A program made the position numbers and the translations under genes. A stretch of DNA of 48,039 bases. Origin: an uncultured Clostridia bacterium (GTDB lineage: Bacteria > Bacillota > Clostridia > Christensenellales > UBA1242). This document shows, one piece after another, positions 4,986 to 29,239 of the stretch. The notes below the pieces were generated by a model. The model saw only the letters and a program-made list of their open reading frames with translations, had not been told where the DNA came from and made no database searches. Location of the stretch: the NCBI GenBank assembly GCA_944350095.1, contig CALVOB010000033.1:1-48039 (forward strand). The letters run 5' to 3'. Every line of letters starts with the position of its first letter. The stretch's first letter is position 1.

Positions 4986-5705
4986 ATGTTAGAGTTAAAA
5001 AATATTACTTACATTGTTCATGATGAAAAAACCAATGAAGAAAGAGCAGTGCTTAAAAATATAAATGTAAAATTTCCAGAAAATAAACTGACTGTAATAA
5101 CGGGGCAGAATGGAAGTGGGAAATCTACATTAATAAAACTTATAATGGGAATTATATCTCCTACAAGCGGGGAAATAATATATAATGGTAAAAATATTAC
5201 TAATTTAAGCATTAACGAGCGTGCAAATTTAGGCATAACTATTGCACTTCAACAACCTGTGAGATTTAAAGGCTTAACTGTTAAAAATTTACTTGATGTT
5301 GCAAGCGAAAAATCAAATAAAATTTCTGATGCTTGTGAATATCTTTCAAAAGTTGGACTTTGTGCTAAAAATTATTTAAATAGAGAGTTAGATTCTACGC
5401 TCTCTGGTGGTGAACTTAAAAGGATAGAACTTGCAATTAGCTTGGCAAAAGGTGGAGAGTTATATCTCTTTGATGAGCCAGAGGCTGGAATAGACCTTTG
5501 GAGTTTTGATTCTTTGGTTGACCTTTTTAAAACACTGAATGATAAAACTGTAATAATTGTTAGTCATCAAGAAAAGATTATAGAAGAGGCTGATTATTTG
5601 TTGATTATTGAAAATGATGGATATAAAATGGGCAAAAAAGATGAAATTTATTCAATTTTAAAACCTGAGCCTATATGTAAAAAACTTGGAGGTCAAAATG
5701 AATAG
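4986..5705 (+). CDS. sufC: Fe-S cluster assembly ATPase SufC
   Basis: 239 aa. Walker A GQNGSGKST, LSGGELKR signature, LFDEPEAGID Walker B. Followed by a SufB/D-like gene. Confidence 0.85.
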   Translation: MLELKNITYIVHDEKTNEERAVLKNINVKFPENKLTVITGQNGSGKSTLIKLIMGIISPTSGEIIYNGKNITNLSINERANLGITIALQQPVRFKGLTVKNLLDVASEKSNKISDACEYLSKVGLCAKNYLNRELDSTLSGGELKRIELAISLAKGGELYLFDEPEAGIDLWSFDSLVDLFKTLNDKTVIIVSHQEKIIEEADYLLIIENDGYKMGKKDEIYSILKPEPICKKLGGQNE

Positions 5706-9569: not shown

Positions 9570-9596
9570 TTGAAAAACATAAAAAATAATATTTTT

Positions 9597-9629
9597 AAAA
9601 ATCCGAATATAATTTTATCGGATTTTTTT
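9597..9629 (+). terminator. intrinsic terminator after rnr
   Basis: aaaaATCCGA-atataatttta-TCGGATttttttt. Confidence 0.65.
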
Positions 9630-9794
9630 AATTTTGGATTTTTTAATTAATAATTAAACAATTTTTTATATTTTTGCAGTTTATTTTAAATTTAATTTAA
9701 ACTAATTTTAAATATCAATATTTAATTAAATGGATATTAAATTAAAATGATTTTAATTTTACATTAAATAATCGGAATTTTATTTCAAAATGTT

Positions 9795-9822
9795 TTGTTT
9801 TTTTACATATTTCGGTTATAAT
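9795..9822 (+). promoter_or_regulatory. candidate promoter for the VirB4-like gene
   Basis: TTGTTT, 16-nt spacer, TATAAT (9817-9822). SD AAGGGTG precedes ATG 9841. Confidence 0.4.
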
Positions 9823-9840
9823 ACATTAAAAGGGTGAATT

Positions 9841-11337
9841 ATGAGAGTTATTCCTAGAAGAACCAAAGTTAAAATGGAGTTTTTTAAAAATGTTACCTTA
9901 GGTGACATTATTCTTGCTTTTATAGGCGTGGCGGTAGGCTTAGGCTTATTTTTAAGTGGGCTTCCAAATAATCTTGGAATTTGGCTCGGAATAGCTTGGG
10001 TAGCTATAATTGTAAGTTTGTATTTTAAAGTTGCAGATGATGTTAGATTATATCAAACACTTGGTTATGCTATAAGATTTTTAGCTCAAAAAAAGAAATA
10101 TGCAAAAGAAAAAATTAAAAAATTCTATCCTGTTTCTGAAATAATACCTTTTGTTGATATCTATCAAGATAGATTTATTGATTTCAAAGAATACTATGGC
10201 ATGGTTGTAGAAGTTTATCCGTTGGAATTTGGGTTACTTAATGAATATAAACAAGAAATGGTAATAGAAACTTTTGCTAATGCTTTAAGAAGATTATCTG
10301 ATGAGCAAACTGCTTCCATTGTTAAATTAAATAAAGCTATGATTTTAGACTCTTATATTTATAATGAAGATAAAAAGTATGATAATCTTTTAGAGCTTCA
10401 ATATGAGGGGGAAATTAAACCAGAGGAAGTTGAAGTTCGTGCTGGTGTGTTTGAAGAAAGAGTTTCTAGAATGGAAACTATGAACCGTGATGAAAAAATT
10501 TTTAAAGACCATTTTTATGTTGTTGTTTATGATAAAGATAAAGAGCTTTTAGAAAATACAATAAATGGTATAATGAGCACACTTCAAAATTCACCTACAC
10601 CAATGCACACAGAAAGAATAGTTGGTAACGATTTAGCAGTTTTTCTTCGTGCTACATTTGGAAAAGAGTTTGACGAGCGTGAACTTGAAAGCTTGCCGTT
10701 TTCAAAACATGTTGATTGGGCTACACCTAATAAAATAAGATTTCAGGCTAGCAGAGTTATTATAGACGACAAACCTTATAGACAATTTGTTATAAGCGAT
10801 TATCCACTTCAAGTTCCAAATGCTTGGGGATATCCATTTTATAGGCTTGATAGAACAAGAGTTATAACAAAAATTAAACCTGTTCAAAAATTTAAAGCAG
10901 AGCGTGCATTAGATAAAGCCATAATGGAAATGGAAACAAAAGTTGCAAAAGTGGCTAGAAGTAGTAGACAAATTGAAAATCAAACACACCTTCAAACTTT
11001 AAGGGAGTTACTTGCAGGTTTAAAAAACAATAACCAACAACTTTATGATGTAAATATTTTTATTACATGTGAAGAACCTGCAAGAAAAGAGGTTAGAGCT
11101 ATCTTAAAGCAACAAGGATTTAAATATTCCGAAATGTTTGGTCGTCAAGTTGATGCATTTATTAGCTCAAATATTTCTATGAGAGATAATGTGGAAAATA
11201 CCAAACGCGGAATACCAACAACAACTTTGGCTGCTATTTTCCCATTTGTATCAAGTGCACTTCAAGACCCTAATGGTTTCTATATTGGATATAACGAATT
11301 CCCTGTGTTTGTAGATTTCTTTAAAAGAGATAGGTAA
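9841..11337 (+). CDS. VirB3-like TM segment plus VirB4/TrsE-family N-terminal domain (upstream part of a split conjugation-type ATPase)
   Basis: 498 aa. Two N-terminal TM helices (PrgI/VirB3-like), then a soluble domain. Ends at TAA 11335-11337, in frame with the next ORF and just before its P-loop. Confidence 0.65.
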   Translation: MRVIPRRTKVKMEFFKNVTLGDIILAFIGVAVGLGLFLSGLPNNLGIWLGIAWVAIIVSLYFKVADDVRLYQTLGYAIRFLAQKKKYAKEKIKKFYPVSEIIPFVDIYQDRFIDFKEYYGMVVEVYPLEFGLLNEYKQEMVIETFANALRRLSDEQTASIVKLNKAMILDSYIYNEDKKYDNLLELQYEGEIKPEEVEVRAGVFEERVSRMETMNRDEKIFKDHFYVVVYDKDKELLENTINGIMSTLQNSPTPMHTERIVGNDLAVFLRATFGKEFDERELESLPFSKHVDWATPNKIRFQASRVIIDDKPYRQFVISDYPLQVPNAWGYPFYRLDRTRVITKIKPVQKFKAERALDKAIMEMETKVAKVARSSRQIENQTHLQTLRELLAGLKNNNQQLYDVNIFITCEEPARKEVRAILKQQGFKYSEMFGRQVDAFISSNISMRDNVENTKRGIPTTTLAAIFPFVSSALQDPNGFYIGYNEFPVFVDFFKRDR

Positions 11338-11352
11338 AGAGTTAATAGTAAT

Positions 11353-12468
11353 ATGATGATTATAGGAAAATCTGGTTCTGGTAAATCCTATGCTACTAAA
11401 ACACTACTTGCTAACTTTGCCGCGGATAATACAAAGGTGTTTATTCTTGACCCAGAAGATGAATATACTCAGCTATCTAAAAACCTTAGAGGTAAATGGA
11501 TTGATGTAGGTTCTTCTGCAATGGGAATTATAAATCCTTTCCATATTATCACTTCTCTTGAAGCCGATGAGGGTGGAGATGATGATTCTTATTCTATCCA
11601 CTTACAGTTTTTGGAACAATTCTTTAAAGTTATTATGGAAGGAATGAATAGTGAATCATTTGAAATTTTAAACTCTGCGGTTGTAGAAGTTTATAAGCAA
11701 AAGGGAATTGGCCCTGGGGTAGAACTTTCTAAGCTTAAACCTGAAGATTTCCCTATATTTGATGATTTATATAAGTATATATTAAACAAAATTGACACAG
11801 CAAAAACTGAGTACGAAAGAAAGAACTACATGACAGTTGAAACTTATGTTAAAAAGTTTGCTAGCGGAGGAAGAAACTCTAATCTTTGGAATGGTCCAAC
11901 TAGTATGGAAACAAAAGAAAATTTTGTTACATTCAATTTCCGTTCTCTTCTTGCAAACAGAAACCAAGTTATAGCAAACGCTCAAATGCTTCTTGTATTC
12001 AAATATCTTGATAACGAAATTATAAAAAACAAGGATTTTAATGAAAGGTTTAATATAAAGCGTAAAATAGTTATAGCTGTTGATGAAGCGCACGTTTTCA
12101 TTAATCCAAACTATCCAATAGCGCTAGATTTCATGGCGCAAATGGCAAAGCGTATTCGTAAGTATAATGGAATGCAAATTGTTATTACGCAAAATATTAA
12201 GGACTTCGTTGGTTCACAAGAAATTCAGCGTCAGTCTACCGCGGTTATTAACGCCAGCCAATATTCATTTATTTTCTCGCTTTCACCAAACGATATGAAC
12301 GACTTAGTAGAGCTTTATAGAAAGTCTGGTGAAATTAATGAGGAAGAGCAAAATAGCATTGTTACCGCAGGTGTAGGTCAGGCTTTCTTGATTACAGGAC
12401 CTATGAGTAGAACAATGGTGCAGATTGTTGCTTATGACTATGTAAAAAGAATTTTTAGTCAAGATTAA
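11353..12468 (+). CDS. VirB4/AAA_10-type ATPase domain (downstream part of split gene)
   Basis: 371 aa. Walker A IIGKSGSGKSY, ILDPEDEY, Walker B IAVDEAHVF. Same frame as 9841 (11353-9841 = 1512 = 3x504). Confidence 0.75.
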   Translation: MMIIGKSGSGKSYATKTLLANFAADNTKVFILDPEDEYTQLSKNLRGKWIDVGSSAMGIINPFHIITSLEADEGGDDDSYSIHLQFLEQFFKVIMEGMNSESFEILNSAVVEVYKQKGIGPGVELSKLKPEDFPIFDDLYKYILNKIDTAKTEYERKNYMTVETYVKKFASGGRNSNLWNGPTSMETKENFVTFNFRSLLANRNQVIANAQMLLVFKYLDNEIIKNKDFNERFNIKRKIVIAVDEAHVFINPNYPIALDFMAQMAKRIRKYNGMQIVITQNIKDFVGSQEIQRQSTAVINASQYSFIFSLSPNDMNDLVELYRKSGEINEEEQNSIVTAGVGQAFLITGPMSRTMVQIVAYDYVKRIFSQD

Positions 12469-12487
12469 AAAAATGTTTAAAACCCTC

Positions 12488-12516
12488 TTGAAATTGTGGT
12501 ATTATAGTGATATAAT
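12488..12516 (+). promoter_or_regulatory. consensus sigma-70 promoter in front of the 594-aa gene
   Basis: TTGAAA (12488-12493), 17-nt spacer, TATAAT (12511-12516). Confidence 0.5.
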
Positions 12517-12541
12517 ACTTACAAGTAGTAGGAGGGTTTTT

Positions 12542-14326
12542 ATGTTGTATAAAGACTTAATGACAAAAGATACTTATACTGATTTACAAGATTATCTTGA
12601 ACTAGGAGAAGATGCAATCACTTTGATGGGCTATGATAGATCTAGAAGCGTAGATGGAACAAAACTTATAAAAAGGTTTCAAACTACTGCTGACCCAGAG
12701 CTTATGGGAATGGTTAATTCTTTTTCTGGTGATGATGTCATGATTGGTGTGCCAAAGTATGCAGATCGTGGATACTCTTCTTTTGTTGTAAGAGATAAAT
12801 CTTTATCAATCAGGTATCCTTTAACAGGAACTGTTGGAGCTGTTAAGAAATATTTTACACAAAGTGAAAAAACATGCCCTAATTTTAAAAGTGTAATTAA
12901 TGAAATTGAAAGGGCTTTTAAAGTTAAAGTAAAAGATGATGAAAGAATTTCTAAGCCTATATCTTACTTTGGTGGTACAATAAGGCTTGCGGGAAGATTT
13001 GGTGGAGAAAAAGTTAGCGAAGCTGATAAATTAGTGCAAGTATTTAATTTGTTAGCTAAAAATGCAATAAAGGATAAATTCAAAAATACAACAAATCCTG
13101 ATAGAGTTAAATTTGCAACCGAACTTTTAACTACAATGTTTATTGCTGAAAGTTATGATTTAGGTGTTAACTTCAATAGAAAAATCGACAATGCTTTAAG
13201 GCTTCAACTATCTAACACCATAGCTGCTCTTGGAAATGCAAACAAGGAAACAATAAATTTAATTTCTTCACAAGCAGAAAAGGCTGTTGCAAAATTTTTG
13301 AAAAAGAGTGGAAAATCTCCAAGTGATATAGTTAAAACATTAACTAAGTTAGGTTATACTTATACAAAAAATCCAACAAATCTTTATGAAGTGCTTTTTG
13401 GAGAAAGAAAAAACTATATGTTTACACAGGAAGTTTCACAAAAAGATGCAGATGAAATTTTAGGAAAAGTTACTTATTACGACGAAACTCAAGAGGAAAA
13501 TAATTTTGCTAAAGATATGAAAAGAGAACAGGAAAAATACGATACTAAAAAACAAATTCCAGGAACTGAAACTATGATAAGGCTTGAAGGAGAAGAAAAA
13601 CCTTCAGAAAAATCTATTTTTGATTTTGCAGATGATATGGTAGATGAACTTGGAGAAGGGTTAAAAATAGACAAAAAAGTGCCAGATGTAATTCATTTAC
13701 CAGGTAAAGTGGAAGAAAAGCCAGATGTTATAATTCTTCCAGGGAAAGTTGAACCTAAATTGCCAGAAATAACATTAGAACAATTTGTAGCAAAACTTTT
13801 AGAAGAAAATGAAAATAAGGCTTATATTAAGGCTATTGAAGGTAAAATAGATCATAAAAAATCATTGTTTGGCGGGAAAACACAAGTTAAAGATGGAGTT
13901 TCAGAAAGAACTTTAAAAACTATTTTTGATAAAGCGGTTGTTAAAGAGCTTGAAAGTGCATGCAAGGAAATTGTAAGCCAATTTAGAAAAGAAAAAGGTC
14001 AAATTAAAGATGTGCTTTCAGATATATATAATCAACTTACTCACGCAAAACAATTCTTTGGAAAAAGTAGTGACAGAAAGGATATAAAAGCTGTAAGTGG
14101 AAAAATAGTTGAAGCTAAAAAAGTAAAACTTGGGCTTGTAAAACCTTTGGAAGAAAGAAGAAAAGAGTTTATTGAAGAAACAATGGCTTATCAAGATGCT
14201 TTAAGGGGATATGCTCCAACTGAAGATATTAAAGCTAAAATTAAATCTTTATCTGATGCTAAAAAGATTAAAGAAATGGTTAATCGTTATGTTCAATCTC
14301 AAAAAGATGCGGGAATTGAAAAGTAA
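12542..14326 (+). CDS. hypothetical soluble protein (594 aa), partner of the VirB4-like ATPase
   Basis: ATG 12542 lies 5 nt after SD AGGAGGG (12530-12536). The track's 12473 start lacks an SD and overlaps the promoter. No TM segment and no motif I recognise. Internal 13-aa tandem repeat PDVI(H/I)LPGKVE(E/P)K. Confidence 0.7.
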   Translation: MLYKDLMTKDTYTDLQDYLELGEDAITLMGYDRSRSVDGTKLIKRFQTTADPELMGMVNSFSGDDVMIGVPKYADRGYSSFVVRDKSLSIRYPLTGTVGAVKKYFTQSEKTCPNFKSVINEIERAFKVKVKDDERISKPISYFGGTIRLAGRFGGEKVSEADKLVQVFNLLAKNAIKDKFKNTTNPDRVKFATELLTTMFIAESYDLGVNFNRKIDNALRLQLSNTIAALGNANKETINLISSQAEKAVAKFLKKSGKSPSDIVKTLTKLGYTYTKNPTNLYEVLFGERKNYMFTQEVSQKDADEILGKVTYYDETQEENNFAKDMKREQEKYDTKKQIPGTETMIRLEGEEKPSEKSIFDFADDMVDELGEGLKIDKKVPDVIHLPGKVEEKPDVIILPGKVEPKLPEITLEQFVAKLLEENENKAYIKAIEGKIDHKKSLFGGKTQVKDGVSERTLKTIFDKAVVKELESACKEIVSQFRKEKGQIKDVLSDIYNQLTHAKQFFGKSSDRKDIKAVSGKIVEAKKVKLGLVKPLEERRKEFIEETMAYQDALRGYAPTEDIKAKIKSLSDAKKIKEMVNRYVQSQKDAGIEK

Positions 14327-14834: not shown

Positions 14835-15190
14835 GGGGGCGAACAGGTTTCGACGGGGAAGTAGTAAAATTTGCATAAAGCGTGTGGCAGTGTGGATTCT
14901 GCCTTAAAAGCCACAAAAAAATAAACGCAGATTATAGCGAAAATTTAGTTGCTGCCTAAGCGCACAACACGCTTTCCTAAATGCGCACGAGTTTAGGGCA
15001 AAGCGTTCAAATTTCGTGAGCCTTTAAAACAAATTTAGTGCTGTTTTGTTTTAAAAAATTTTAAAGCGCTGGCAAAAGCATACTTGTTTATGATTATGTT
15101 TTTGTAAGATAAAAGAGCATAAACTACACATCGTAGAAAAGCAAATTTTGCCTTTTTCGGACGCGGGTTCAATTCCCGCCGCTTCCACCA
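14835..15190 (+). ncRNA. ssrA: transfer-messenger RNA (tmRNA)
   Basis: 5' GGGGGCG pairs with 3' CGCTTCC-ACCA (G3:U pair, alanine identity). T-arm GGACGCGGGTTCAATTCCCGCC. Tag ORF GCA GAT TAT AGC GAA AAT TTA GTT GCT GCC TAA (14927-14959) encodes (A)ADYSENLVAA. Confidence 0.9.
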
Positions 15191-17665: not shown

Positions 17666-17707
17666 AAAATATTTCCGTTAATTGTGGCGGAAATATTTTT
17701 TTTGTGA
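17666..17707 (+). terminator. intrinsic terminator
   Basis: AAAATATTTCCG-ttaattgtgg-CGGAAATATTTT followed by a T run. Confidence 0.7.
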
Positions 17708-17719
17708 TAATATAGTACT

Positions 17720-18571
17720 ATGAGATTTTTAAGTTTTGCAGGTTTTAAAAAAAGAAAACTAAAAATAGGGTTAGCTCTTGGGGGAGGAGGTGCAAGAGGC
17801 TTTTCTCACTTGGGTGCCTTAAAAGCGTTTGAAGAATATGGATTAGACTTTGATTATGTTTGTGGTACTAGTGCTGGAAGTTTAGTAGGAGCTTTCTATG
17901 CTGCTGGATATAATTACAAACAAATTTTTGATGTTGCAAAAACTATAAAAACTAAGGATATTAGAACTAGCAAACTTTTTTTTGTACCTTCTAAAACTGA
18001 TGGGATTGAAAAAATTATTACGGACAACTTAGGAGATATAAATATAGAAGACTTGAAAAAACCTTTTTCTGCGGTGGCAGTGGATATAAAATCTACCAAT
18101 GAAGTGTGTATTACAAAAGGAAATCTTGCAAAAGCAGTGGCAGGTAGTTGTTGTGTTCCCGGAATATTTCAACCAGTAGAATTTGGTGATAGGCTTTTAT
18201 GTGATGGCGGACTTCAAAATACAATGCCAGCAGATATCCCTAAACTTATGGGCTGTGATTATGTTGTTGCAGTTGATGTAAATAAATCTAGAACTTATGG
18301 GACTTCTTCTACTAAAATGTTAGATGTTTTAGCTTGTGCTATTAGAATTTTAATGAAAGGAAATGTAGTAAAAGGTTATGTAAATGGTGATGTAATTTTA
18401 AAACCTGAAACTAAGAGATTTAAATCTACTAGTACGGAAGGTTATCTTGACATGATTGAGGAGGGTTACCGCGAGGCGATAGATAAAATGCCAGATGTTC
18501 TTGCGTTATTTCAGGGAAGAGCACCTAAAAAGAAAGTTGAATTACATGAGGAGAATTTTGAGATTATATAA
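17720..18571 (+). CDS. patatin-like phospholipase
   Basis: 283 aa. Oxyanion GGGGARG, nucleophile GTSAGS, and catalytic Asp in a DGG motif (LCDGGLQN). Confidence 0.85.
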   Translation: MRFLSFAGFKKRKLKIGLALGGGGARGFSHLGALKAFEEYGLDFDYVCGTSAGSLVGAFYAAGYNYKQIFDVAKTIKTKDIRTSKLFFVPSKTDGIEKIITDNLGDINIEDLKKPFSAVAVDIKSTNEVCITKGNLAKAVAGSCCVPGIFQPVEFGDRLLCDGGLQNTMPADIPKLMGCDYVVAVDVNKSRTYGTSSTKMLDVLACAIRILMKGNVVKGYVNGDVILKPETKRFKSTSTEGYLDMIEEGYREAIDKMPDVLALFQGRAPKKKVELHEENFEII

Positions 18572-19686
18572 TGGCAAAAGAAAAAAATTATAAAGGTTTA
18601 TTTATTAGATGTTTAATTGCTCTAATTTTTGTTGGGCTACTTCTTTCAACCTATTTTGTTAGAGAGCAGATTGAAAATTATTTAAATTCAGTTTTATATC
18701 CAGAAGTATCTGATGATATTTCCAATTCCAAACTTATTATGCACTTTATAAATGTTGGCAATGCAGATGCAATAGCTATTGAACTTCCAAATGGTGAACA
18801 TATGCTCATTGATAGTGGTGACAACAATAATACATCTCGTGAAGCACTTATTTCCTATTTAGATAATAATTTTTTTGAAAATGGCGAAGAAAAAGTTTTT
18901 GATTACTTTATTCTTACACATTCTGACGCTGACCATGTGGGAGGTGCGGAAATTGTTTTAAATACATACAAAATTGAAAAATGTTTTAGACCATATCAAT
19001 TCACAGAGCAGGAGGCAACTGAAAATAATATAACAAATAAAAATAATATTGTAACTACGCAAGTTTTTCAAAAATTTGTGAATGCTTTGGAGAAAGAAAA
19101 TTGTGAAGTTGAGTTTTTTACCGTAAATTCTGATATCAATTTTTCTGATTTTAATATAAACTTTATAGCTCCAGTTGAAACTACTTTTTCCGATACTAAT
19201 AATTATTCTCCTGTTATGATTTTAACTTATGCAGGAGTTAAAACAATGTTTACAGGTGATGCAGAAAAGGAGGTTGAAGATTCTCTGCTAGACTTGTATA
19301 GCGATTATAGTGGGGAATATGCTACTAGTGTATTGGATATAGACATCTTAAAAGTAGGACATCATGGTAGCGATACTTCTTCTACAGAAGACTTTATTAA
19401 GGCTACAACTCCGAGTTATGCGGTTATATGTACAGACGGAAAGGAATATGGTCACCCAAGTAAAACAGTTTTAAATAGGCTTCAAAACAATGGAACTAAA
19501 AATATTTATAGAACAGACTTGAACGGCAATATTGTTATAGGTGTTAGTGAAGATGGTACAATTTCTGCTGTTTTAGGCACCATTACAAAAGGATTTAAGA
19601 TTGAATGGTATCAATTAGTTATTTTAGTTGGTTCGGTTGGGTTGGTTATTATTTTTACAATTGGAAAAAAGAAGAAAGCTAAATAG
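18571..19686 (+). CDS. ComEC/Rec2-related metallo-beta-lactamase-fold hydrolase (membrane anchored)
   Basis: 371 aa. N- and C-terminal TM helices. LTHSDADHVGG (HxHxDH), GDAE and KVGHHGS motifs typical of the ComEC C-terminal MBL domain. TAATG coupling to the patatin gene. Confidence 0.8.
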   Translation: MAKEKNYKGLFIRCLIALIFVGLLLSTYFVREQIENYLNSVLYPEVSDDISNSKLIMHFINVGNADAIAIELPNGEHMLIDSGDNNNTSREALISYLDNNFFENGEEKVFDYFILTHSDADHVGGAEIVLNTYKIEKCFRPYQFTEQEATENNITNKNNIVTTQVFQKFVNALEKENCEVEFFTVNSDINFSDFNINFIAPVETTFSDTNNYSPVMILTYAGVKTMFTGDAEKEVEDSLLDLYSDYSGEYATSVLDIDILKVGHHGSDTSSTEDFIKATTPSYAVICTDGKEYGHPSKTVLNRLQNNGTKNIYRTDLNGNIVIGVSEDGTISAVLGTITKGFKIEWYQLVILVGSVGLVIIFTIGKKKKAK

Positions 19687-19773
19687 CACGGAAGTAAATT
19701 TTGCAAAGCAAAATTTTAAAAACTGCACTTTGTGCAGTTTTTTGCTTGTGGCAAGCCACAAGCACTTCCGTGC
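19686..19773. repeat. 88-nt perfect nested palindrome (outer stem plus three hairpins; four-way junction), copy 1
   Basis: Outer stem 19686-19695/19764-19773 (10 bp). Hairpins at 19696-19716 (9 bp), 19718-19742 (11 bp, TTT loop) and 19744-19763 (8 bp). All pairs are Watson-Crick. Confidence 0.7.
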
Positions 19774-20149: not shown

Positions 20150-20599
20150 ATGAAACCTAATTTGGTAATTATAGGGTTTGAAAAAGAGTTTAATAAAAAG
20201 CTTTGCATATATCTTGCAGACAAGTTAGATATGTTTTTTGTTGATGTTAAAGAATTGATTGAGTACGATTTAGTTAATAGTAAGGAAGCACTTTTAAGGT
20301 GTGTAAAGGAATATATAGAAAAGGAAGAGCGAAAAACAGTTAGAAATGTTTCAGAATATGAGAACTCTGTTGTTAATATCCCTTACGACATATTTGTAAC
20401 CAATCGTGATTTTTTTAAAGCTGGAAACATAAATATATTTATTAAGCCTTTTAAGGCAGATGATATTGATGATATAGTTATGCAGGATAGAATAGCTCTT
20501 TTAAAAAATGATTGTCATATTTTTATAGAAAATAGTGAAAATAATATTGAAAAATGTTATAATTTAATAATGTCAAAACTAAAAGGAGACAATAGATGA
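20150..20599 (+). CDS. shikimate-kinase-like protein with a degenerate P-loop
   Basis: MKPNLVIIGFEKEFNKKLCIYLADKLDMFFVDVKELIE aligns by eye to AroK (..IGFMGSGKST.G..LA..L...F.D.D..IE), but GxxGxGKS/T is replaced by GFEKEFNK. ATGA overlap with tkt. The track's 20099 start is a TTG extension. Confidence 0.45.
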   Translation: MKPNLVIIGFEKEFNKKLCIYLADKLDMFFVDVKELIEYDLVNSKEALLRCVKEYIEKEERKTVRNVSEYENSVVNIPYDIFVTNRDFFKAGNINIFIKPFKADDIDDIVMQDRIALLKNDCHIFIENSENNIEKCYNLIMSKLKGDNR

Positions 20600-22688: not shown

Positions 22689-26135
<3,447 letters not shown>

Positions 26136-26232: not shown

Positions 26233-26319
26233 ATGCCCATGCGCGCGGAGAAATTTATTTCTCCGCAAGCGGGCTTTTTTAAAGCCCGCTTGGCACTTTT
26301 AGTGCCAGCGCATGGGCAT
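26233..26319. repeat. 87-nt perfect nested palindrome (outer stem plus three hairpins; four-way junction), copy 2
   Basis: Outer stem 26233-26244/26308-26319 (12 bp). Hairpins at 26245-26266 (9 bp), 26267-26291 (11 bp, TTT loop) and 26292-26306 (6 bp, TTT loop). All pairs are Watson-Crick. Confidence 0.7.
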
Positions 26320-26458
26320 GCAAAAACAGCAGAGATTTATAATGTTCTGCTGTTTTGCTAGGTAAAGAAATAACTTTCTTTACACTATTAATTTATGTAG
26401 TTTTAAAAATATTATTCAAAAATTATAAAAATTTTTACATTTATGTTATAATAAATTT

Positions 26459-27190
26459 ATGAGAGTGTTAATTACAATAGAATATAATGGTAAATATTTT
26501 AATGGCTGGCAAAGGCAAAAAAAAGGGATAGGAGTACAAGAAGTATTAGAAAATGCTTTAAGAAATCTTTTAAAAGAAGAAATTACATTAGTTGCAAGTG
26601 GAAGGACAGACGCTGGCGTACATGCAATATGCCAATATGCACATTTTGACACACATACAAATTTTGCATTAGATAAGCTTCCTTTTGCAATAAATGTAAA
26701 TCTTCCTAATGGGGTAAGAGTGCTTTCAGCAAAGCAAGTAGATAATTCTTTTAATGCAAGAACAAGTGCACATAAAAAAACATATTTATATAAACTTTAC
26801 ACAAGAAAAATTTTAAGCCCATTGCGAGAAGAATATTTTGCAAATGTTCCTTATGAATTAGATTACAATAAAATGATAGAAGCCTCTAAGCTTTTTTTAG
26901 GCAAGCACAATTTTAAAGGCTTTTGTTCTGAGGGTTCAAGTGTAATTAATTTTGAAAGAGAAATTTTTTCTTTTACAATAGATAAATTTGAAGATGAATA
27001 TTATTTCAAAATTACAGGTAACGGTTTTTTGTATAACATGGTTAGAAGAATAGTGGCTAGCGTTGTGGAAGTTGGCAAAAATAAATTAGAATTAAAAGAT
27101 ATTGCTTTTGCTCTTAAAAACTTTGAACAAAAGCATATTACAAAGGTTATGCCAGCCTGTGGGTTGTATCTTTATAATGTTGAATATTAA
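26459..27190 (+). CDS. truA: tRNA pseudouridine(38-40) synthase
   Basis: 243 aa. YNGKYFNGWQRQ and catalytic-Asp motif ASGRTDAGVHA, plus GFLYNMVRRIV. Confidence 0.9.
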   Translation: MRVLITIEYNGKYFNGWQRQKKGIGVQEVLENALRNLLKEEITLVASGRTDAGVHAICQYAHFDTHTNFALDKLPFAINVNLPNGVRVLSAKQVDNSFNARTSAHKKTYLYKLYTRKILSPLREEYFANVPYELDYNKMIEASKLFLGKHNFKGFCSEGSSVINFEREIFSFTIDKFEDEYYFKITGNGFLYNMVRRIVASVVEVGKNKLELKDIAFALKNFEQKHITKVMPACGLYLYNVEY

Positions 27191-29021: not shown

Positions 29022-29033
29022 ATTTGTTGTTTT

Positions 29034-29064
29034 AAAAATGCGAGGTATACACCTTGCATTTTTA
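29034..29064 (+). terminator. intrinsic terminator after rpsI
   Basis: AAAAATGCGAGG-tataca-CCTTGCATTTTT (one G-U pair). Confidence 0.75.
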
Positions 29065-29239
29065 TTTAAGTTTTATATTGAGATGAAATTTATCCAAGCT
29101 AGTTATTTATGATTTATTTTACTAAATAAAAGCTTGTCGATTATATTTTATAACATACTTTTAGATATGCTATTAAAATTTTTAACTTATTTAGTTTTAT
29201 TTTTTTTTAAAATGTGATATTCTAAACGAGGAGTTTTTT

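Follow-up and report, generated by a model that had tools for sequence, protein, structure and literature searches.

Structure-defined extragenic palindromes at gene ends are a kind of element already known in several forms. Repetitive extragenic palindromic (REP) sequences and bacterial interspersed mosaic elements (BIMEs) are G+C-rich palindromic DNA located in spacers at the 3' ends of genes and operons, often beside terminators, and the consulted sections of two papers propose roles for them in supercoiling, termination, and mRNA stabilization (PMC3733652, PMC2817692). REPs are single imperfect hairpins of 20-40 bp with a conserved GTAG/CGTC head, and they form high-copy families linked to the RAYT transposase. 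Intrinsic terminators are likewise structure-defined, locus-unique, and placed at gene ends; they consist of one hairpin, and in the genomes considered here they tolerate G-U pairs and bulges. Two further elements at gene ends, E1 and E2, are found in a 48-kb stretch of DNA from an uncultured, AT-rich gut Clostridia bacterium (contig CALVOB010000033.1 of assembly GCA_944350095.1; 48,039 nt, hereafter the window). They represent a real and apparently undescribed kind of structured element, unexplained by any family tested. Unlike REPs, such elements have their own sequence at each locus and form a perfect four-arm compound palindrome of 74-124 nt. Unlike a terminator, they add an enclosing stem of 10-14 bp and two more hairpins, and E2 lies beside a separate terminator that is kept where the junction is absent. 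Full-text literature searches, with keyword look-ups in some of the papers returned, found no description of such elements.

Several other systems resemble the junction elements in part. Integron attC sites carry RYYYAAC/GTTRRRY core sites and strand-marking extrahelical bases, and their place is in cassette arrays beside an integrase gene. They share with the junction elements a conserved fold, a variable length, and a position right after a stop codon, and they fold in single-stranded DNA, as the junction elements may. Core sites, extrahelical bases, cassette array, and integrase are nevertheless all absent at the junction elements, whose neighbors are housekeeping genes, and an attC identity was rejected. 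The T-shaped inverted terminal repeat (ITR) of adeno-associated virus (AAV), with its flip and flop forms, places an outer palindrome around small palindromes and forms a branched junction in single-stranded DNA. Parvovirus ITRs and the junction elements have this nested arrangement in common, and in both the interior occurs in two orientations. The AAV ITR caps the ends of a linear single-stranded DNA genome as a three-way junction and contains one site for Rep binding and one for nicking, whereas the junction elements are four-way, internal to a bacterial chromosome, and without an associated replication protein. A tRNA is also a four-way junction in which a terminal stem closes three hairpins, but the arms of the junction elements are two to three times longer, with almost no unpaired junction bases and no conserved D, T, or anticodon loop bases. 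ARAGORN reported nothing at E1 or E2, its sole find in the window being a tmRNA (14835-15190), and Rfam 15, searched at gathering and E-value thresholds, returned nothing credible at either element (best sub-threshold scores of 28 bits against a threshold of 141, and 25 against 100). With arms of 6-14 bp and freely varying loops as well, a tRNA, tmRNA, or tRNA-like identity was rejected. A preliminary description of this DNA had left room for a known RNA family or repeat to account for the structure; no match explains E1 or E2. For AT-rich mitochondrial genomes, GC clusters, double-hairpin elements, and repetitive hairpin-forming elements have been described (PMC4478555, PMC2800124). As far as the consulted sections of these sources go, they too are G+C-rich hairpin islands in AT-rich spacers, present or absent between relatives, but they are mobile multi-copy families of one or two hairpins, whereas the junction elements are always four-armed and show neither a sequence family nor a mobility signature.

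E1 occupies 88 nt of intergenic DNA (19686-19773) and is a complete four-way-junction palindrome. Its 10-bp outer stem, in which GCACGGAAGT (19686-19695) pairs perfectly with ACTTCCGTGC (19764-19773), encloses three hairpins: hairpin 1 (19696-19716; AAATTTTGC, AAA loop, GCAAAATTT), which has 9 bp and is AT-rich; hairpin 2 (19718-19742), which has 11 bp, a TTT loop, and a G+C core, CTGCAC/GTGCAG, between A5 and T5; and hairpin 3 (19744-19763; GCTTGTGG, CAAG loop, CCACAAGC), which has 8 bp. The unpaired junction bases are two single Ts (19717 and 19743), and the 38 pairs are all Watson-Crick, with no mismatch and no G-U, exactly as the preliminary description had set out. E2 (26233-26319; 87 nt) has the same architecture, with a 12-bp outer stem (ATGCCCATGCGC, 26233-26244, with GCGCATGGGCAT, 26308-26319) surrounding hairpin 1 (26245-26266; GCGGAGAAA, TTTA loop, TTTCTCCGC), hairpin 2 (26267-26291; AAGCGGGCTTT, TTT loop, AAAGCCCGCTT), and hairpin 3 (26292-26306; GGCACT, TTT loop, AGTGCC). 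Folding confirmed the 38 pairs claimed for it, in the minimum-energy structure, with one unpaired junction A. The E1 fold can be read directly from the sequence, and in ViennaRNA, under RNA and DNA parameters, the four-way junction is both the minimum-energy and the centroid fold on both strands of both elements (z = -7.9 to -11.7 with RNA parameters and -8.6 to -12.7 with DNA parameters); none of 200 shuffles folded as well as E1 or E2. The expectation that both strands would fold equally well is thereby borne out. The stems had also been called GC-rich, which holds for E2 (53% GC) and only partly for E1 (41% GC, against 29.4% for the window, with the AT-rich hairpin 1). That one simple terminator would not suffice to explain E1 was a sound judgment, the architecture being real and recurrent, and an identification of the whole four-arm element as an intrinsic terminator was rejected; E2 has a terminator-like hairpin of its own at 26320-26358.

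A perfect-hairpin search and a local-fold scan found no further structure of this type in the window, where the other terminators are single hairpins, and no additional copy was present in about 62 kb of DNA from the same species (the window, about 14 kb beyond its ends, and conspecific contigs). Related loci, numbered L001 onward here and amounting to about 1.4 Mb, were collected from independent assemblies in ENA, Logan, and NCBI. The closest sequences are uncultured Clostridia metagenome-assembled genomes (MAGs) and metagenome contigs, and more distant relatives are labeled Christensenellales-like. RNALfold was run on the collection and every multiloop was extracted; the class is defined by such fold scans and not by covariance models. 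With G-U pairs forbidden, a scan of 1.33 Mb in which 80% or more of the bases had to be paired and the outer stem had to reach 5 bp gave 10 multibranch matches, every one of them with exactly three inner hairpins. There were no three- or five-arm versions among the densely paired multibranch folds of the scanned loci, and two-branch folds surfaced solely at a relaxed threshold, as chance-like structures. As the initial discovery of the class had excluded G-U, low-GC loci totaling 733 kb were rescanned on both strands with G-U allowed, to check for ascertainment bias. This rescan gave nothing new and no G-U-bearing analogs, and at 86% or more of bases paired, 18 of 18 matches were known elements.

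A strict list (at least 78% paired, outer stem of at least 6 bp) holds 11 elements, including E1, E2, and those at L001 17701-17774, L004 11364-11472, L009 1975-2064 and 8240-8319, L012 876-958, L019 14068-14154, L021 14119-14203, and L034 1392-1515. They occur in independent ENA, Logan, and NCBI assemblies and are genuine. All lie in loci of at most 40% GC, and none was found in scanned loci of 42% GC or more. Typical sizes are 10-14 bp for the outer stem, 6-17 bp for the arms, and 74-124 nt overall, with loops mostly of 3-4 nt (TTT, AAA, GAA, CAAG) and 0-4 unpaired junction bases. The class consists of chromosomal non-coding compound palindromes in which an outer inverted repeat of 10-14 bp surrounds exactly three short perfect hairpins, and since so few junction bases are unpaired and the palindromes are perfect, either strand can fold into an immobile four-way junction. 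All elements are intergenic and, where the upstream gene is visible, begin -1 to 247 nt after a co-oriented stop codon; the exception is the L012 element, which follows the 3' end of a 16S rRNA gene. A canonical terminator hairpin usually adjoins them. The upstream genes include those for a metallo-beta-lactamase (MBL)-fold hydrolase and pyruvate:ferredoxin oxidoreductase (PFOR), greA, rnr, and a 16S rRNA gene, and the next gene is co-directional for seven elements and convergent for two (L019, L021).

Sequence relationships within the class are sparse. The E1 covariance model recovers its own orthologs and, weakly, two further elements, that of L034 in the rnr-smpB spacer at 31 bits (E = 8e-4) and that of L012 after the 16S rRNA gene at 28 bits (E = 4e-3); the E2 model recovers its own orthologs only, and the other families are missed by both. 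The 9-mer GCACGGAAG of the outer stem is common to E1 and the L034 element, and some element families may have moved, or been carried, between spacers over long times. Neither the E1 nor the E2 model matches the other element (alignment z = 3.5), and the two appear, from their sequences, to be unrelated members of a lineage-restricted class without detectable homology. It had been proposed that every paired position co-varies between the two copies; this does not hold for elements that are not detectably homologous, and true covariation lies between the orthologs of each.

E1 orthologs are present in L005 and L006, at the same place in L099, L100, L098, L105, and L107 (75-76% MBL identity), and, inverted, in L009 and L101. 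In the L099-type copy, which reads GCACGGAAGC, AAATTTTGC-GGA, T, AAAAACTGCGCGG-GGT, T, GCTTGGAGC-TAAAAA, and GCTTCCGTGC in order, the last outer pair differs from that of the window (T-A to C-G, compensated), hairpin 2 has exchanged an A-T for a G-C pair and gained 2 bp with its A5...T6 flanks kept, and hairpin 3 has been remodeled on both sides to GCTTGGAGC/GCTCCAAGC with every change compensated; all three loops differ. Across the orthologs, the stem of hairpin 1 is identical in every copy while its loop varies (AAA, GGA, TTC), and 8 of the 10 outer-stem pairs are invariant, the other 2 having changed on both sides. Further copies in relatives and an outer stem conserved in orthologous spacers, both of which the preliminary description had proposed to look for, were therefore found. 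The central hairpin takes the forms 13 bp/GGT, 10 bp/TTT, and 7 bp/GAA, so the 11-bp/TTT hairpin once regarded as a feature common to E1 and E2 is not conserved and is a coincidence. A six-row E1 alignment (A3) has standard pairs in 95.5% of its cells; sliding the 3' partners by 1-3 columns lowers this share to 33-47%. Changes on both sides are seen at 8 pairs, and at 0-2 in these slid controls. Between the window and L099, identity is 40% at fourfold-degenerate sites of the MBL gene, 51% in the downstream flank, and 78% in E1; with 40% identity at such sites, neutral positions are saturated at this distance.

For E2, a single-sequence covariance model identified orthologs in the PFOR-truA spacers of L009 (8237-8322; 52 bits, E = 2e-10) and of L001, the closest other species at 82% MBL identity (17697-17778; 35.5 bits, E = 5e-6), with the junctions themselves at L009 8240-8319 and L001 17701-17774. 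The outer-stem arm is ACCCCATGCGAG in L009 and GCCAAGCGAG in L001, with changes on both sides, and hairpin 3 of L001 (GGCGCT/AGCGCC) has a compensatory A-T to G-C change. MAFFT misaligned the stems of these orthologs and the covariance-model alignment was used instead; in that alignment, which is fitted to the model and leans toward structure, 13 of the 38 model pairs are invariant, 22 have changed on both sides, and none is G-U. Directly 3' of E2, the terminator-like hairpin GCAAAAACAGCAGAG...CTGCTGTTTTGC (26320-26358, plus strand) is of the ordinary type and is conserved in sequence in four lineages, including L001, L009, and L010, the last of which (69% MBL identity) has the terminator and lacks the E2 junction. 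Orthologs at a saturated synonymous distance thus keep or compensate their stems while loops and flanks drift, and this pattern shows purifying selection on base pairing. The elements are old and, where present, under selection, yet they can be gained or lost.

This selection acts alike on both strands. When G-U is allowed in folding, 2 of 471 pairs in the junction elements are G-U, both at stem ends, whereas 37 distinct ordinary intergenic terminators of the same loci have 19 G-U pairs among 346 (5.5%; Fisher p = 5e-6), along with 13 internal unpaired bases; wobble pairs are tolerated in the ordinary terminators of these genomes, unlike in the junction elements. In L009 and L101 (74% MBL identity), the E1 ortholog must be reverse-complemented before it aligns to E1 and to L099, with global alignment values of 63 against 36 in forward orientation for the window E1 and 62 against 25 for L099. 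The E1 covariance model assigns it 76 bits when the minus strand is read, compared with 59 for the plus strand, and the AAATTTTGC hairpin, which is first in the window E1, is third in L009 and L101. This lineage accordingly carries E1 inverted between the same genes with its pairing intact, the L009 copy being still perfectly paired. The pattern indicates that selection is strand-symmetric and that function tolerates inversion of the element. The earlier suggestion that a DNA structure is as plausible as an RNA is strengthened by the avoidance of G-U relative to terminators and by the one inverted ortholog.

The central arm of E1 bears on the same question. Hairpin 2 resembles a bidirectional intrinsic terminator, with a G+C core flanked by an A-tract and a T-tract (A5 and, with the spacer T at 19743 lengthening the T-run, T6). 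A terminator consensus scan makes no call at this hairpin because it counts A/T pairs as stem; taken by its G+C core alone (CTGCAC/GTGCAG, then T6), the arm does look like a hairpin that runs straight into a U-tract. With such an arm, transcription would probably stop at hairpin 2 and not reach hairpin 3 or the 3' outer arm. G-U avoidance, the inversion of E1, and this terminator-like arm argue against a fold that is needed solely in sense mRNA.

In our best reading, to which we give a probability of roughly 40%, the elements are strand-symmetric DNA junctions acting as boundary elements at the ends of transcription units. They sit at such ends, adjoining or containing an intrinsic terminator, and we infer their function from sequence. 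The selected fold would be that of DNA, or of both strands equally, and not that of sense mRNA alone; with selection alike on both strands and a sense transcript of E1 that may never be whole, DNA is the most likely molecule to form it. The DNA fold would arise where the DNA is briefly single-stranded, or through extrusion driven by supercoiling. In a region in either state, single-stranded or under negative supercoiling, hairpins would nucleate first at the three small palindromes and bring the outer arms together, giving a junction on each strand. This immobile junction could absorb some 8 helical turns, be the binding site of a junction-specific protein (of the HU, RuvA, or RecU type), or do both, and it would form a boundary between transcription units that is functionally analogous to REPs and BIMEs. 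A reader specific for junctions accounts better than a generic RNA roadblock does for the need for exactly four arms. Template switching from arm to arm, a process described as a source and maintainer of perfect stems (PMC8794818), probably renews the perfect pairing quickly. Such conversion alone does not explain the perfect stems, because the stems evolve more slowly than neutral sites.

Several points weigh against the boundary reading. Every example lies downstream of a stop codon near a terminator, and a role in the 3' untranslated region (UTR) of RNA predicts the same placement. GAA and T-rich loops are somewhat commoner on the sense strand, a hint of strand preference. Single defects are found in some copies (L005/L006, L098, L101, L107), and imperfect alleles circulate. 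We know of no established case of cloverleaf extrusion from duplex DNA; extrusion of the junction is a prediction, and once extruded, a junction could endanger the cell through the action of junction-resolving enzymes. The sample is also small, with about 11 distinct elements in some 5-6 independent sequence families from partial genomes. A bolder version, in which these would be the first chromosomal DNA elements defined purely by forming an immobile four-way junction on both strands, seems to us somewhat unlikely. Such an element would be read by its structure, through a junction-binding or junction-processing protein or through supercoiling, and its role in AT-rich Clostridia would be that of a boundary, either topological or between transcription units.

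The leading alternative, possible though less favored, places the function in RNA, with the junction forming as a 3'-UTR module in mRNA or in read-through RNA. It could block 3'-to-5' exonucleases, help or insulate termination, or serve as an RNase III-type processing site, and it would thereby stabilize the upstream message and separate it from the next gene. The location of the elements agrees with this, as they all follow a co-oriented stop codon, stand at or upstream of a canonical terminator, and are never placed between divergent genes; yet only 2 of the 44 spacers in the window are divergent, so the argument from position has little power. Conserved stems with free loops are the classical signature of a structured RNA, and 38 bp divided among arms of at most 14 bp may give high stability without a long duplex. 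A comparable role has been credited to REP elements, as far as the consulted part of the source goes (PMC3733652). What an RNA module leaves unexplained is the virtual absence of G-U where terminators of the same genomes use it, the ability of the element to work in either orientation, and the choice of exactly three hairpins, for which there is no RNA-level reason. Moreover, the terminator-like central arm of E1 precedes hairpin 3 and the 3' outer arm, and an RNA terminated there would lose half the fold.

We consider it unlikely that the elements are a functionless by-product, that is, palindromes made, extended, and homogenized by replication template switching around pre-existing terminators, and neutral or mildly selfish. 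Perfect stems can be generated, and pairing fixed in one event, by template switching (PMC8794818); minimal loop sizes, loop inversion, and whole-element inversion are in keeping with this account. Presence and absence at the same spacer agree with this account as well: L010, L011, and L108 lack both E1 and E2 at these positions, and gene function is evidently fine without the junction. Unselected conversion, by contrast, should leave stems drifting neutrally, and the stems change much more slowly than loops, flanks, and saturated synonymous sites. The four-arm plan recurs in about 5-6 unrelated sequence families without three- or five-arm versions, and if the L004 element is an ortholog, E1 has been retained as far as a relative with 61% MBL identity.

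A non-autonomous mobile or recombination element, such as a MITE (a miniature transposable element with inverted repeats), a REP-like repeat, an invertible switch, or an attachment site whose outer inverted repeat is the target of an enzyme, is improbable. The outer stem does resemble terminal inverted repeats, the weak E1-model matches and shared 9-mer place related sequence in non-orthologous spacers of distant MAGs (L034, L012), and insertion or absence between species and the inverted ortholog would suit mobility. Even so, no direct duplications of 2-9 bp flank any of the 11 elements and no copies are repeated, on which grounds a MITE, for example one of the Correia-like type, was rejected, although the outer stem could pass for terminal inverted repeats. 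The GTAG/CGTC tetranucleotide is absent from E1, E2, and most other members, being present only in the outer stem of L019 and L021, and no Y1 transposase is listed among the Pfam families of the syntenic loci, which are partial genomes. A REP or BIME identity was rejected since about 62 kb of the same species revealed no sequence family with multiple copies, E1 is unrelated to E2, and neither is a single imperfect hairpin. An uptake-sequence or binding-motif reading of GCACGRAAG was set aside as well, the motif not being enriched outside the elements. A metagenome scan with the E1 pattern gave 5 matches, one of them a junction (L105, itself an E1 ortholog), and a viral scan gave 0; blastn searches with E1 and E2 against phages and plasmids gave chance matches only, and phage or plasmid similarity was rejected. 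The annotation of the syntenic loci shows no transposase, integrase, recombinase, or phage gene closer than about 10 kb to either element. The elements of all conspecific contigs have the same orientation, and as the interior consists of three palindromes, inversion changes little and would make a poor switch; an inverton was rejected on these grounds. The recombination site raised in the preliminary description thus gains no specific support, with no recombinase genes nearby and neither core sites nor target duplications.

That the elements are stand-alone small RNA genes, tRNA-like or of another known non-coding type, is highly improbable in spite of their cloverleaf-like outline of an outer stem and three hairpins, given the absence of ARAGORN and Rfam matches, the lack of conserved loop or junction bases, and the abutment of E1 and of the L001 copy of E2 on a stop codon, which leaves no room for a promoter of their own (AT-rich promoter-like strings upstream of E2 are uninformative, and a stand-alone gene there was rejected).

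If the fold is functional, as the pattern of conservation indicates, the junction elements are a new structural type beside terminators, REPs and BIMEs, and attC sites. Their avoidance of G-U and tolerance of inversion offer an unusually clean natural test of selection on branched DNA and not only on RNA folds, and they form a family in which the upkeep of perfect stems, by compensatory evolution or by template switching, can be studied. The elements are short, and the competing hypotheses are directly testable with synthetic constructs and metatranscriptomes. Should they instead be RNA 3'-end modules, they would still be a new and very stable natural design of insulator or stabilizer from an uncultured gut lineage. 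Should they be defined purely by the junction, the immobile Holliday junction made synthetically would have its counterpart in nature, and REP elements and terminators would be joined by a new category.

Among the housekeeping genes of the window are rnr, smpB followed by the tmRNA, and genes for a patatin, the MBL-fold hydrolase, a shikimate-kinase-like protein, transketolase, PFOR, truA, and rplM/rpsI; sporulation genes are present in syntenic contigs. The gene upstream of E1 (18571-19686, plus strand) is identified as an MBL-fold hydrolase by Pfam PF00753 and homologs, and its stop codon, TAG (19684-19686), abuts the element, with its G serving as the first base of the outer stem. Downstream of E1, the first gene, which runs in the same direction and precedes the transketolase gene, encodes the shikimate-kinase-like protein of 149 aa (20150-20599, plus strand; start set by alignment of orthologs, with a weak PF01202 match on an ortholog). 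The spacer between the MBL and shikimate-kinase-like genes is a rearrangement hotspot. At the position of E1, L001 has a different sequence, G+C-rich and strongly structured, in two tandem copies of 161 nt (11180-11466; also in L002 and L008), for which Rfam has no match. In L010, from the lineage without E1, two extra genes lie between the MBL and shikimate-kinase-like genes (11361-14134, with an equivalent in L011), encoding a 698-aa anaerobic-ribonucleotide-reductase-like protein and a 225-aa protein. In L005 and L006, from a strain with 98% MBL identity, the E1 outer stem has A for G at L005 2481 and L006 2468 (corresponding to 19691 in the window), a change which gives an A-C mismatch on the sense strand and would be G-U on the antisense strand.

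E2 begins 97 nt past the stop codon of the PFOR gene (22698-26135, plus strand) and is identical in the conspecific contigs L088, L089, and L091; the gene downstream is truA (26459-27190, plus strand). In the terminator that follows E2, the window has T at 26346, giving a G-T wobble, where three conspecific contigs have C. A second small hairpin, GGTAAAGAAA...TTTCTTTAC (26361-26383, plus strand), lies ahead of the truA promoter region and is conserved. The PFOR gene is split by an in-frame stop in the window, which has an 11-T run at 23197-23210; the conspecific contig L089 reads TTTTTTTGATGGA and encodes an intact protein of 1145 aa. A gene for a DUF87/TraG-like ATPase is likewise split (9841-11337 and 11353-12468), and in L001 it is a single gene of 875 aa. 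Neither gene is likely to be a pseudogene; both splits probably reflect homopolymer or assembly errors in the window.

Junction-like structures were also seen at other loci. The 11.4-kb contig of L009 that carries the E1 and E2 orthologs has a third, less perfect four-way junction (11168-11250), with an 11-bp outer stem and one degenerate arm. In L069, a Clostridiales MAG of 51% GC, an intergenic miniature of 62 nt (5491-5552) has a 5-bp outer stem and three perfect hairpins of 6-7 bp with tetraloops, and it may be a distant member outside the low-GC group. Elements in L019 and L021 have identical stems at hairpin 1 with a TTC loop in the former (14090-14092) and a GAA loop in the latter (14141-14143), an inverted loop such as arises from hairpin-mediated template switching or recombination. 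The L012 locus (1-1170) has the 3' end of the 16S rRNA gene (at about 614), then a terminator, the four-way junction, and a gene for a BspA-type leucine-rich repeat protein; no 23S gene follows, and the rRNA genes of this MAG thus appear to be unlinked. The rnr-smpB spacer differs among lineages: that of L034 holds a G+C-rich four-way junction (1392-1515), that of the window (9570-9840) folds no better than shuffles (z = -1.6), and in L001 (1137-1242; also L002 and L008) a sequence of 8% GC right after the rnr stop codon has an outer stem and three hairpins (z = -5.2 as DNA). Finally, the spacer after rpsI (29022-29239) is 218 nt long in the window and some conspecific contigs and 96 nt in others (L088 3774-3868), and the two versions carry different terminator hairpins, an indel or replacement polymorphism within one species.

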